A DNA stretch of 64,000 bases from Escherichia coli. GTDB taxonomy: Bacteria; Pseudomonadota; Gammaproteobacteria; Enterobacterales; Enterobacteriaceae. The position numbers and the translations under genes are program-made. The notes beneath the pieces were generated by a model. It saw nothing but the letters and a program-made list of their open reading frames with translations, searched no databases and was not told where the DNA came from. Location of the stretch: assembly GCF_003334385.1 (NCBI RefSeq), contig NZ_QOWN01000002.1; one strand, written 5' to 3'. Positions 45,551-47,335 of this stretch are shown piece after piece. Position 1 is the stretch's first letter; each line of letters opens with the position of its first letter.

Positions 45551-46069
45551 ATGAGTAAGAAAATTGCCGTTTTAATCACTGATGAATTTGAGGATTCAGA
45601 ATTTACTTCACCCGCAGACGAGTTCCGTAAAGCCGGACACGAAGTGATTACCATTGAAAAACAAGCGGGTAAAACGGTGAAAGGCAAAAAAGGAGAAGCC
45701 AGCGTGACCATCGATAAATCCATCGATGAAGTGACGCCTGCGGAGTTTGATGCCCTGCTGCTACCGGGCGGCCATTCACCGGATTATCTGCGTGGGGACA
45801 ACCGTTTTGTCACCTTTACCCGTGATTTTGTGAATAGTGGCAAACCGGTGTTTGCCATCTGTCACGGCCCGCAGTTGCTGATCAGCGCCGATGTGATTCG
45901 GGGGCGCAAACTGACCGCAGTTAAACCGATCATTATTGATGTTAAAAATGCGGGCGCGGAATTTTACGATCAGGAAGTCGTGGTTGATAAAGATCAGCTG
46001 GTTACCAGCCGGACACCGGACGATCTGCCAGCGTTTAACCGCGAGGCGTTACGCCTGCTCGGTGCCTGA
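45551..46069 (+). CDS. yhbO: DJ-1/PfpI-family stress protein / protein deglycase YhbO, 172 aa
   Basis: Track ORF 45509..46069; start set at ATG after the RBS ggagga ([18 protein letters not shown]); catalytic-Cys motif AICHGPQ. Confidence 0.9.
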
Positions 46070-46492
46070 GTCGCGTAGCCAAATCATTTTTTTACCAAAG
46101 CCCAGCGTGTTGTCGGTGAATTTGATTTCATCGAGCCGGATTTCCCACACCGGGGCCGACAGCATTCTGGCAACCGGAAAGCGACGATTGTACGCCTTGC
46201 GCGCGAGGTCGCTTTCCTCACCTTCCAGCCTGCGGATCTCACCTTTAAACTGCACACCGCGAATTAACGCTACCGTTTTCGGCTGACCGTTTACCGTTCC
46301 GGCAACCGCAGCCTGCGGCCCACTCATCTGCGCGTGGCGCGTTTTTTCTTCCGTCAAAATGTAGAAGGCGACTTTCTGCGCATCAAAAAGATAAAAGGCA
46401 TTAGCGCACCAGAGTTCCCCTTCCTGCTGCACACACCAAGTGACAACATGTTGTTTTGCCAGCCAACGGCTGATGGCGATGAGTGTTTCCAT
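46049..46492 (-). CDS. yhbP: UPF0306 protein YhbP (PNP-oxidase-like fold), 147 aa
   Basis: Track ORF; convergent with and overlapping the yhbO 3' end. Confidence 0.85.
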
Positions 46493-46542
46493 TGCTGTTC
46501 TCTTTTATACTGTGGGCCTGACCTTAACATGCGACGCAGACG

Positions 46543-46845
46543 ATGACACCCTGGTTTCTTTACTTGATCCGTACCGCCGACAATAAGCTTTATACCGGGA
46601 TCACCACGGATGTCGAACGCCGCTATCAGCAGCACCAAAGCGGCAAAGGGGCGAAAGCACTGCGCGGGAAAGGAGAACTAACGCTGGTGTTTTCCGCGCC
46701 AGTGGGCGATCGTTCGCTGGCGTTACGGGCGGAATATCGCGTTAAGCAACTGACCAAACGGCAAAAAGAGCGTCTGGTAGCGGAAGGCGCAGGGTTTGCA
46801 GAGCTGTTAAGCAGTCTGCAAACCCCGGAGATTAAAAGCGATTGA
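46543..46845 (+). CDS. yhbQ: GIY-YIG domain protein YhbQ, 100 aa
   Basis: Track ORF; GIY-YIG signature ([23 protein letters not shown]). Confidence 0.88.
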
Positions 46846-47335
46846 AATGCTCGTGATACTCAACCAGGCCGGTAACGCCATTCAGCGCGTCATCCGCTAA
46901 ACGATGTACCTGGAAGGCGCTTTCAGTGCCCGGCCAGCGGCAACGCAGATCGTGATGCGCCGCCAGTTCAAAGCCGAAACGACTGTACAGCGCCGGATCG
47001 CCCAGCGTCACCACTGCGGCATAGCCGAACTCATTAAGCGAATCGAGTCCTTCATAGACCAGTTGGCGTGCCAGCCCCTGTCCACGGTATTTTTCATCAA
47101 CCGCCAACGGTGCCATGCCGACCCATTGCAGGTCTTCGCCCTGCACATCAACCGGACTAAATGCCACATAGCCAATGACCTGACCTTCGTCATCTGTCGC
47201 CACCAGCCCCAGCGTCAGAAAGCCATCTTCACGCAGATCGTGAACCAGCTTCGCTTCCGCATCACTTTCGAATGAGCGACGCAGCAGGGCATCAATACCC
47301 GGCGCATCAATGGGAATTTCTACTCGAATTAGCAT
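46832..47335 (-). CDS. yhbS: GNAT-family N-acetyltransferase YhbS, 167 aa
   Basis: Track ORF; GNAT acetyl-CoA-binding motif region. Confidence 0.88.

Follow-up and report, generated by a model that had tools for sequence, protein, structure and literature searches.

The convergent gene pairs yhbO/yhbP and yhbQ/yhbS of Escherichia coli overlap within their coding sequences, and we conclude that these tail-to-tail overlaps most likely result from genome compaction and do not form a dedicated device. The overlaps were already known, and the finding is an ordinary one, since both pairs have been listed as excludons and nothing links YhbQ to YhbS; its significance beyond housekeeping is small, a 3′ overlap being the rule for convergent operons in E. 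coli. What is added here is an explanation for the constancy of overlap length, namely that conserved codons of the partner force the stop; evidence that the overlaps originated by loss of a terminator-bearing spacer; and a putative stem-loop past the hqbA (yhbS) stop, restricted to certain clades and showing compensatory changes. The whole account, in which overlaps in a known K-12 segment arose by compaction, any cross-regulation is generic, and the proteins act separately, seems to us quite probable. Possible uses of the locus are as a teaching example of dual coding constraints and as an entry to the possible influence of its convergent neighbour on hqbA, which encodes an Hfq modulator.

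Organization of the locus and its products

The segment (Table 1) is the known yhbO-yhbP-yhbQ-yhbS(hqbA) region; it matches E. coli K-12 MG1655 with 100% identity, was found in 5425 of 5426 complete E. coli genomes, and has identical coordinates and overlaps for the four genes in the RefSeq annotation. The initial annotation had described 3′ overlaps of about 20 nt for yhbO/yhbP and about 14 nt for yhbQ/yhbS, and the open reading frame list and the sequence bore this out with overlaps of 21 and 14 nt, respectively. Eight convergent pairs occur in the window, that is, the whole 64-kb (64,000-nt) stretch of DNA that was analysed; coding overlap is confined to these two, the remaining six being separated by spacers of 42 to 613 nt, and two neighbouring coding overlaps are thus uncommon locally, within this window.

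Table 1. Positions of genes, overlaps, and transcription-related features, numbered from the first nucleotide of the window
Feature	Position	Strand	Remarks
yhbO	45551..46069	+	ATG 45551, TGA 46069; DJ-1/PfpI family; RefSeq: protein/nucleic acid deglycase
Rho termination region, peak	45679..45679	−	MG1655 3299102, "antisense yhbO"; 370 nt beyond yhbP stop
Terminator-like hairpin, weak T-run	45995..46011	−	about 40 nt past yhbP stop, in yhbO QLVTS codons; consensus match only
Hairpin at yhbO stop plus T7 run	46048..46093	+	hairpin 46048-46079, T7 46087-46093, 7 nt apart
yhbO/yhbP coding overlap	46049..46069		21 nt
yhbP	46049..46492	−	YhbP-family protein
yhbP-yhbQ divergent intergenic region	46493..46542		50 nt
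yhbQ	46543..46845	+	standalone Slx1-like GIY-YIG nuclease
Second, weaker stem-loop	46753..46778	−	yhbS-sense strand, in yhbQ KRQKERL codons
Stem-loop	46788..46826	−	begins 6 nt past yhbS stop, within yhbQ codons; z = −5.3
p19-captured sense/antisense RNA duplex	46810..46833		published; 22 nt; RNase III product labelled "yhbQ yhbS"
yhbQ/yhbS coding overlap	46832..46845		14 nt, TTAAAAGCGATTGA
yhbS = hqbA	46832..47335	−	GNAT acetyltransferase, binds Hfq
ubiT	47329..47853	−	same transcription unit as yhbS; ubiT stop overlaps yhbS start (ATGCTAA)

All four genes are annotated, and activities have been described for YhbO, YhbQ, and YhbS/HqbA. Two of the proteins scored above curated NCBIfam cut-offs: YhbO, which corresponds to PDB 1OI4 and whose expression is RpoS-dependent, with the DJ-1/PfpI model TIGR01382 (233.6 bits; cut-off 139), and YhbP with NF002900 (267 bits; cut-off 176). 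The conserved core of YhbP ends in GFGKKxxWLR[DE], and its Xenorhabdus homolog gave a weak match to Pfam PNPOx_N. A search of NCBIfam with YhbQ matched no model, and Pfam and PDB were therefore used for this protein. Residues 4-76 of its 100 matched the Pfam GIY-YIG domain (PF01541, E = 4.5e-16) with no auxiliary domain, and solved homologs exist (1ZG2, 1YWL); YhbQ belongs to the Slx1-like standalone GIY-YIG nucleases (UPF0213), a large and long-known class found throughout bacteria. Its tail, from about residue 80 to residue 100, varies in both length and sequence. E. coli YhbQ variants of 89 and 92 amino acids were considered as natural tail deletions and rejected, the deletions being internal and in the catalytic domain. 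YhbS corresponds to PDB 4RS2, an acyl-CoA N-acyltransferase-domain protein (E = 8.8e-111), and is named GNAT family N-acetyltransferase in RefSeq; the E. coli protein has been renamed HqbA and acts on Hfq. Reverse transcription-PCR and co-induction by Fnr have shown that hqbA is co-transcribed as the second gene of a ubiT-hqbA operon, and the ubiT-yhbS order was kept in every locus, among those of the 80 species compared below, that reached far enough to include ubiT.

Conservation and anatomy of the overlaps

The arrangement was compared across 80 species of Enterobacteriaceae, with counts taken over 81 loci. The anatomy of the overlaps was alike throughout: the C-termini of YhbO and of YhbS (VEYH[DE]HFNRF) are conserved and the tails of YhbP and YhbQ are variable, the latter running through the antisense of the partner's codons until these impose a stop. 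At the yhbO/yhbP junction the TAA that ends yhbP lies opposite a TTA (Leu) codon of yhbO, and the final six residues of YhbP, SGTEQA, are yhbO codons read antisense. Where the yhbO end was intact (47 loci), the overlap measured 21 nt (31 loci), 15 nt (14), or 4 nt (2), and each of the 31 species in the 21-nt group had TTA or CTA as the Leu codon opposite the yhbP stop. At the other junction it is the Phe(TTY)-Asn(AAY) codons of yhbS that dictate where yhbQ stops (T|GA or T|AA); the 14-nt overlap was preserved in 66 of 81 loci, and its length is constant because these YhbS codons force the yhbQ stop. In-frame insertions and deletions and occasional frameshifts in the YhbP and YhbQ tails gave overlaps of 4, 17, or 25 nt. 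The spacing of the divergent genes yhbP and yhbQ was 50-55 nt in 76 of the 81 loci and 49 nt in one further locus. The overlaps are thus not accidents of one strain.

In 29 of the 81 loci yhbO was lost and yhbP retained; in these species YhbP ends directly after WLR[DEQ], with yraR 3-91 nt past yhbP on the same strand. A Pantoea-like locus carries a 144-nt spacer between yhbO and yhbP that contains a canonical terminator, a hairpin with a T-run, and it retains the 14-nt yhbQ/yhbS overlap. Adjacency of yhbQ and yhbS was found in all 80 species of Enterobacteriaceae and also in the Pantoea-like, Sodalis, and Xenorhabdus loci, persisting in Xenorhabdus despite a degenerate ubiT and the absence of ubiUV. 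In Vibrio cholerae, and in another relative at about 66% identity, the neighbours of yhbQ were unrelated (DUF480/TraF; leuD/flhB) and included no GNAT gene. The adjacency and the 14-nt overlap are so persistent that there could be selection for the arrangement itself.

Transcription across the overlaps

Each gene has its stop within its partner, so that a full-length mRNA is necessarily antisense to that partner; the coding overlap leaves no room for an intergenic terminator, and each mRNA must end within the opposing gene. Transcripts ending before the overlap, which the initial annotation had offered as contrary evidence, are therefore not to be had from a full-length mRNA, whose own stop lies within the overlap. 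Both pairs are named among the 165 convergent excludons of MG1655 (ExcludonFinder, NAR 2025, PMC12288877), a list based on detection in at least 50% of 58 transcriptomes, and both share with that class the opposite strands, the facing 3′ ends, and the overlapping transcripts. For excludon pairs in general, synteny is higher and expression in single cells is more mutually exclusive (PMC12288877). However, 276 of 370 convergent operons of E. coli (~75%) have a 3′ overlap, with a mean length of 286 nt (Conway et al. 2014, PMC4161252), and the inference of antisense interaction and possible interference is for that reason generic.

Published data point to transcription beyond the stops at both junctions. 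On the yhbP-sense strand a bicyclomycin-sensitive Rho termination region peaks within antisense yhbO (Rho score 4.79, p = 2.7e-9; Adams et al. 2021, PMC7815308), its position being coarse, as the comparison windows were 800 nt. The same study reported no Rho termination region for the yhbQ/yhbS junction, and the curated Term-seq 3′ ends include no discrete end for yhbO, yhbP, yhbQ, or yhbS. At the yhbQ/yhbS junction a 22-nt duplex of RNase III type, perfectly paired and with reads from both strands, has been captured at low abundance (6.8 and 3.2 RPM); for each size class and growth phase the list runs to about 1,200-2,000 p19 duplexes, and such reads reach 1 RPM or more in 87% of genes. The position of the stops within the partner genes, the excludon listing, the Rho region, and the captured duplex together substantiate the proposal, made from the sequence at the outset, that the convergent overlaps entail antisense 3′ interactions.

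Stem-loops at the junctions

Two hairpins lie at the yhbO/yhbP junction (Table 1). The hairpin at the yhbO stop is followed, at a non-canonical spacing, by a T7 run that reads on the opposite strand as the Lys-Lys codons of YhbP. This hairpin pairs the yhbO Leu-Arg codons with the antisense of the yhbP Leu-Arg codons; no significant covariation was found in 47 species, the third bases of the two Arg codons agreeing in 26 of 47 against ~46% expected, a difference that is not significant. We therefore rejected it as a selected element and regard it as a by-product.

The stem-loop just past the yhbS stop lies at the gene boundary and contains a perfect, G+C-rich 11-nt inverted repeat (46792-46802/46815-46825). 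Immediately after the stem the plus strand reads CGGAGAUUAAAAGC and the minus strand UGCGCCUUCCGC; a U-tract is absent on both strands, and a scan for consensus terminators gave no match at this junction. Paired cells made up 80% of the stem, as against at most 52% when the partner was slid. The covariation score of 0.255 exceeded the shuffle mean of 0.136 and was reached in 0 of 500 shuffles (slid, at most 0.163), although such shuffle statistics overstate the significance because the species compared are related. One pair, 38-70, was GC in 24 sequences and CG in 21, and two-sided changes occurred in 5/8 outer-stem pairs (7/12 counted). When the 70 nt past the yhbS stop were folded against shuffles, the mean z was −2.16 on the yhbS-sense strand and −1.47 on the other strand, compared with −0.99 and −0.72 for control segments; the preference for one strand was weak (paired cells, 80.2% on the minus strand vs 74.7% on the plus strand). 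RNAalifold found no consensus structure in the whole 60-sequence junction alignment, which limits the claim to some clades. The stem-loop was missing at that position in Kosakonia/Phytobacter and in short-tail Enterobacter/Klebsiella; in Enterobacter/Klebsiella-type species with a short YhbQ tail the second stem-loop is the dominant hairpin. A permissive-threshold Rfam scan of 44600-48200 found no known RNA family, its sole match being a sub-threshold CRISPR-DR22 (E = 0.28) in the ubiT-ubiU spacer. The compensatory changes suggest that a stem-loop 3′ of the hqbA stop has been kept in many genera, within a limited set of clades.

Discussion

We propose that a spacer between convergent genes, of the terminator-bearing kind still seen in the Pantoea-like relative, was lost, and that the partner with the laxer C-terminus, YhbP or YhbQ, now reads on through the antisense of the last codons of its constrained partner until stopped, in yhbP by the yhbO Leu codon TTA/CTA and in yhbQ by the Phe-Asn codon junction of YhbS. 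According to the published data, yhbP-sense transcription proceeds for about 370 nt into antisense yhbO before Rho stops it, and transcripts of both strands extend over the yhbQ/yhbS junction, giving rise to some double-stranded RNA, which RNase III cuts. The most likely role of the stem-loop past the hqbA stop is to define or shield the 3′ end of the ubiT-hqbA mRNA, or else to position colliding polymerases. A tentative extension, which we put forward as a minority view of our own, is that the variable YhbQ tail is kept mainly as the carrier of this RNA element, defining or protecting the mRNA end or fixing the site of polymerase collision; in that case, the persistence of the 14-nt overlap across Enterobacterales would be due to selection on a sequence with a dual use, protein and RNA, that couples the Hfq modulator HqbA to yhbQ.

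Cross-regulation within the pairs, if there is any, is probably of the weak, generic kind common at most convergent E. coli operons. A stronger version would make them functional excludons, whose overlaps would be retained because transcribing one partner holds down the other, as polymerases collide and RNase III cuts the duplex; the outcome would be condition-dependent, mutually exclusive expression, for example with anaerobic, Fnr-driven ubiT-hqbA set against yhbQ or stationary-phase, RpoS-driven yhbO set against yhbP. Such regulation would fit the different regulators of the partners, Fnr for ubiT-hqbA and RpoS for yhbO, the published listing of both pairs together with the synteny and anticorrelated single-cell expression of the class, the duplex RNA captured at the yhbQ/yhbS junction, and the conservation of that overlap across Enterobacterales; in addition, head-on polymerase collisions between convergent genes need stem-loops for positioning (bioRxiv 10.1101/2022.10.23.513370). 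We nevertheless consider it unlikely: the duplex is scarce and one among many listed, the YhbS codons that force the stop already explain the constant 14-nt length, and the repeated deletion of yhbO without loss of yhbP, together with the terminator that parts the two genes in the Pantoea-like genome, shows that yhbO/yhbP coupling is dispensable.

The constant adjacency of yhbQ and yhbS, from all 80 species of Enterobacteriaceae out to the Pantoea-like, Sodalis, and Xenorhabdus loci, could also be read as a sign that the nuclease and the acetyltransferase act jointly, perhaps in a two-component module for nucleic-acid modification or defence, and the initial annotation had hinted at a shared GIY-YIG/GNAT role. 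That hint found no support, as yhbS belongs to the ubiT operon and acts on Hfq, and standalone Slx1-like GIY-YIG proteins are common throughout bacteria. The two genes lie on opposite strands with separate promoters, yhbS being co-transcribed with ubiT, and published work found that the effect of HqbA on Hfq requires neither yhbQ nor yhbP, as judged from plasmid deletions, and is independent of acetylation. We regard joint action as highly improbable and reject it on the operon structure, the plasmid deletion result, and a neighbourhood that is not conserved outside Enterobacterales, yhbQ of Vibrio cholerae having unrelated neighbours and no GNAT gene; the four proteins have separate functions. 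Least probable of all, to the point of being negligible, is that the overlaps are annotation artefacts, the proteins ending earlier and the tails not being made. The YhbP and YhbQ tails are indeed poorly conserved and tolerate frameshifts, but the first in-frame stop is unambiguous, none occurs earlier in the 81 loci with the standard arrangement, and RefSeq gives the same ends. Compaction remains our preferred explanation.

Comparison with known systems

The placement of the opposite-strand yhbO between yhbP and yraR in E. coli resembles noncontiguous operons, of which three E. coli examples are listed (PMC12288877); the published list does not include the yhbP/yhbO/yraR trio and, unlike those operons, the yhbP-sense transcript in E. 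coli is terminated by Rho in antisense yhbO before reaching yraR. The RNA past the yhbP stop is an ordinary example of Rho termination of untranslated antisense read-through (PMC7815308). As in bidirectional terminators and programmed collisions (Wang, Watters, Ju and Liu 2022, bioRxiv 10.1101/2022.10.23.513370), there is a stem-loop at a convergent boundary and both strands are transcribed; unlike a bidirectional terminator, the stem-loop at the yhbQ/yhbS junction has no U-tract and lies inside the yhbQ tail codons and not between genes. The two pairs are themselves among the published convergent excludons (PMC12288877), and their 3′ transcript overlap resembles that of 75% of convergent operons (PMC4161252). 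Most listed excludons, however, are separated by an intergenic spacer with a mean of 95 nt (PMC12288877), whereas here the coding sequences themselves overlap, so that the overlap of transcripts is obligatory and not a result of leaky termination.

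Genes and layout of the segment

The ORF listing, the raw sequence and the RefSeq annotation gave concordant gene coordinates, and together with the family matches they bore out the positions and identities that the initial annotation had assigned to yhbO, yhbP, yhbQ and yhbS. Both coding overlaps are real and exact in length; they are the only ones among the eight annotated convergent pairs of the 64-kb window, the remaining pairs having spacers of 42-613 nt. Genes are closely spaced all along the segment: the divergent genes yraR and yhbO lie 127 nt apart, and the yhbS start overlaps the ubiT stop in ATGCTAA. 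Segment 45300-47900 showed 100% identity to its counterpart in E. coli K-12 MG1655, and all but one of the complete E. coli genomes (5425/5426) carried it; in strain MSB1_9I (NZ_LR890508.1, match H1) an IS1A-family insertion splits an otherwise identical segment into two pieces.

Features of the segment and neighboring sequence (window positions)
Feature	Position	Strand	Details
yraR	44788-45423	-	ORF listing, sequence, RefSeq
Inverted repeat adjoining yraR stop	about 44792-44832		AGCTCTT...AAGAGCT
Term-seq 3' end	44832	+	MG1655 3298255
Region where yhbO is absent in 29 loci	45424-46069		L006, L007, L011, L012, L014, L016, L018-L021, L023-L025, L027, L037, L039, L040, L059, L060, L063-L066, L069, L071, L074, L076, L079, L080
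yhbO	45551-46069	+	DJ-1/PfpI; TIGR01382, 233.6 bits; PDB 1OI4
Rho region peak	45679	-	MG1655 3299102
yhbP	46049-46492	-	YhbP family; NF002900, 267 bits
yhbO/yhbP convergent coding overlap	46049-46069		21 nt
Site with the Leu codon of the YhbP WLR motif	46070-46078	-
yhbP-yhbQ divergent spacer	46493-46542		50 nt
yhbQ	46543-46845	+	GIY-YIG domain, residues 4-76; solved UPF0213 homologs 1ZG2, 1YWL
Stem-loop	46792-46802 / 46815-46825	-	perfect 11-nt inverted repeat inside yhbQ codons; yhbS-sense strand
22-nt duplex	46810-46833
yhbQ/yhbS convergent coding overlap	46832-46845		14 nt
yhbS (hqbA)	46832-47335	-	protein is PDB 4RS2
ubiT	47329-47853	-	ORF listing, sequence, RefSeq
CRISPR-DR22 match	47885-47921		ubiT-ubiU intergenic region
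ubiU	from 48062	+	ORF listing, sequence, RefSeq

Expression of yhbO is RpoS-dependent. YhbQ, named DNA damage response exodeoxyribonuclease in RefSeq, has a standalone GIY-YIG domain; Slx1-like proteins of this kind were described in 2006 as a large bacterial class. Two YhbQ variants from some E. coli genomes, P0038 (92 aa) and P0050 (89 aa), have in-frame internal deletions inside that domain, of GKGAKALR or of another 11-residue stretch, and may represent loss-of-function alleles; their C-terminal tail and the overlap are unaltered. YhbS, now called HqbA, contacts Hfq at its distal face and restricts weak RNA binding, an effect that does not depend on acetylation. Its gene is the second of the Fnr-induced ubiT operon and has an extra internal promoter, and HqbA plays no part in ubiquinone synthesis. 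The Rfam match to CRISPR-DR22 scored 21.9 bits, below the gathering score of 50 (E = 0.28), and most likely reflects chance similarity to a palindromic regulatory region.

Conserved codons at the two junctions

A one-genome-per-species scan, in which genes were placed by tblastn and each match was extended to its stop codon, yielded 80 Enterobacteriaceae loci. All 80 kept the order yhbP-yhbQ-yhbS, followed by ubiT-ubiU in every one long enough to show them. With the K-12 reference locus included, the yhbQ/yhbS overlap was 14 nt in 66 of 81 loci, 4 nt in 7, 17 nt in 4 and 25 nt in 1, and 3 loci had none. The YhbS C-terminus, VEYH[DE]HFNRF, was conserved across these 81 loci. The YhbQ tail was variable and contained in-frame indels, yet it ended at the same point, because the YhbS Asn and Phe codons force a stop on any yhbQ in that frame: the stop (TGA or TAA, divided after the T) is built from the opening base of the Asn codon together with the final two bases of the Phe codon (TTC/TTT). 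In lineages with a 1-nt tail indel the stop falls at the 4-nt (TTAA-type) or the 25-nt position, indicating that frameshifts in the YhbQ tail are tolerated.

The yhbO/yhbP junction is the mirror image of this arrangement, with the YhbO C-terminus conserved and the residues that follow the YhbP core end, ...GFGKKxxWLR[DE], being an antisense reading of yhbO (SGTEQA in E. coli). Read in antisense, a yhbO Leu codon supplies the yhbP stop. This codon was TTA or CTA in 31/31 species whose overlap is 21 nt; where the overlap is 15 nt (14 species), the next yhbO Leu codon takes this role. At the conserved WLR motif of YhbP and its homologous sites, the Leu codon was a normally rare one, CTA (20) or TTA (11), in 31 of 47 species; hairpin pairing, considered as a reason for this choice, was not significant. 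The hairpin at this junction gave no significant covariation.

yhbO was absent from 29 of the 81 loci (table), those of E. albertii, E. whittamii, many Citrobacter, Trabulsiella, Buttiauxella, Kluyvera and Raoultella. In these loci YhbP stops directly after WLR, and where yraR is present (27/29) it follows yhbP by 3-91 nt on the same strand; the Trabulsiella sequence, yhbP TAA-tgc-ATG yraR, looks like an operon junction. The deletion junctions differ by lineage, and in L004, a locus of one Escherichia clade, only the last ~21 yhbO codons remain (1605-1667), together indicating repeated deletion. The comparison suggests that yhbO, the opposite-strand gene between yhbP and yraR, was deleted repeatedly and independently.

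For a wider comparison we used 50%-identity YhbQ representatives and their contigs. Two Pantoea-like loci (L091/L092) kept the whole gene order and the 14-nt yhbQ/yhbS overlap; a 144-nt spacer lies between yhbO and yhbP there (L091 3318-3463) and contains a canonical hairpin and T-run terminator (GAGCCGGGTTCGCCCGGCTT, then a T-rich run, 9 nt past the yhbO stop). The yhbO/yhbP overlap looks derived, through loss of a terminator-bearing spacer. The overlap of yhbQ and yhbS was 4 nt in Sodalis praecaptivus (L087), where yhbP was not detected, and 47 nt in Xenorhabdus (L088, 4341-5095), where ubiT is degenerate and ubiU/ubiV are absent; only a ubiT fragment (residues 109-164) is left there, and yhbP, yhbQ and yhbS are nevertheless present. 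Vibrio cholerae (L082) and two further loci (L089/L090, about 66% identity) had unrelated neighbors and no yhbS near yhbQ. The adjacency of yhbQ and yhbS, therefore, is an old synteny within Enterobacterales and not a general family association, and we regard a joint function of the two proteins as highly improbable.

The yhbP-yhbQ spacer was 50-55 nt long in 76 of 81 loci and 49 nt in a further locus; it contains the conserved motifs TGCTA/TACTG and TTAACATA. With only 50 nt available, the promoter of each gene must extend into the other, and the 5' ends may overlap too; the pair is absent from the published divergent excludon list.

A stem-loop after the yhbS stop

A stem-loop begins 6 nt past the yhbS stop codon, and folding of the surrounding 121 nt gave z = -5.3. 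There was no U-tract beside it on either strand, no match in a terminator scan and no Rfam match. In a 60-species alignment pairing held in 80% of cells, compared with at most 52% when partners were slid, and the covariation score was 0.255. Shuffles averaged 0.136, with 0/500 as high as 0.255, and slid partners scored no more than 0.163. Pair 38-70 was G-C in 24 sequences and C-G in 21, and pairs 37-71, 39-69 and 40-68 also showed two-sided changes, in separate genera. The minus strand was only weakly favored (80.2% paired vs 74.7% for the plus strand), and RNAalifold returned no structure for the whole 60-species alignment. The stem-loop is not universal: Kosakonia/Phytobacter lack it at that position, and a short-tail Enterobacter/Klebsiella group has a second hairpin instead, in the KRQKERL codons. 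Over 78 loci the 70 nt past the yhbS stop, taken in the yhbS sense, folded better than shuffled sequence, with a mean z of -2.16 and 49% of loci below -2; the corresponding values were -1.47 for the opposite strand and -0.99 and -0.72 for control segments. Strong hairpins, though different ones, also follow the yhbS stop in the Pantoea-like and Sodalis loci. These comparisons provide moderate evidence that a 3'-end stem-loop would serve the ubiT-hqbA mRNA.

Published transcript data

Published positions were converted as MG1655 = window + 3253423, using three sequence anchors. Adams et al. 2021 (PMC7815308) reported a Rho termination region classed as 'antisense yhbO' (Rho score 4.79, p = 2.7e-9), whose peak lies 370 nt beyond the yhbP stop codon, so yhbP-sense transcripts extend through most of antisense yhbO before being terminated by Rho. 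Their curated Term-seq 3' ends include none for yhbO, yhbP, yhbQ or yhbS. A plus-strand Term-seq 3' end, at the inverted repeat by the yraR stop, is antisense to the yraR 3' end. Using p19 capture of RNase III products, Huang et al. 2020 recovered a 22-nt duplex, listed as 'yhbQ yhbS', whose strands CAGUCUGCAAACCCCGGAGAUU (6.8 RPM) and UCUCCGGGGUUUGCAGACUGCU (3.2 RPM) pair perfectly, showing that this junction is transcribed on both strands and that the RNAs pair. Its abundance is modest, and some such reads came from 87% of genes.

Discussion

Compaction is the best-supported explanation of both overlaps. We propose that spacers between convergent genes were lost, and that the less constrained ORF now reads into its partner's complementary strand as far as a stop dictated by the conserved codons there. 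Termination must then fall within the opposing gene, by Rho, as shown for yhbP, and perhaps at the stem-loop, with small amounts of RNase III-sensitive duplex as a result. The initial annotation had proposed antisense interplay and possible mutual transcriptional interference, and the antisense reading gains support from the published transcript overlap, the Rho region and the duplex, but such features are generic among convergent operons. A true regulatory excludon, in which the overlapping transcripts of adjacent opposite-strand genes would control one another, seems to us unlikely, and more so for yhbO/yhbP because yhbO has been lost repeatedly and because the Pantoea-like locus has a terminator between the genes.

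Both the overlaps and their antisense reading are already in the literature. Table 1 of ExcludonFinder (NAR 2025, PMC12288877) includes yhbO-yhbP and yhbQ-yhbS among 165 MG1655 convergent excludons, defined as pairs with transcript overlap in 50% or more of 58 transcriptomes, and Conway et al. 2014 (PMC4161252) found 3'-end overlap, with a mean of 286 nt, in 276 of 370 convergent operons.
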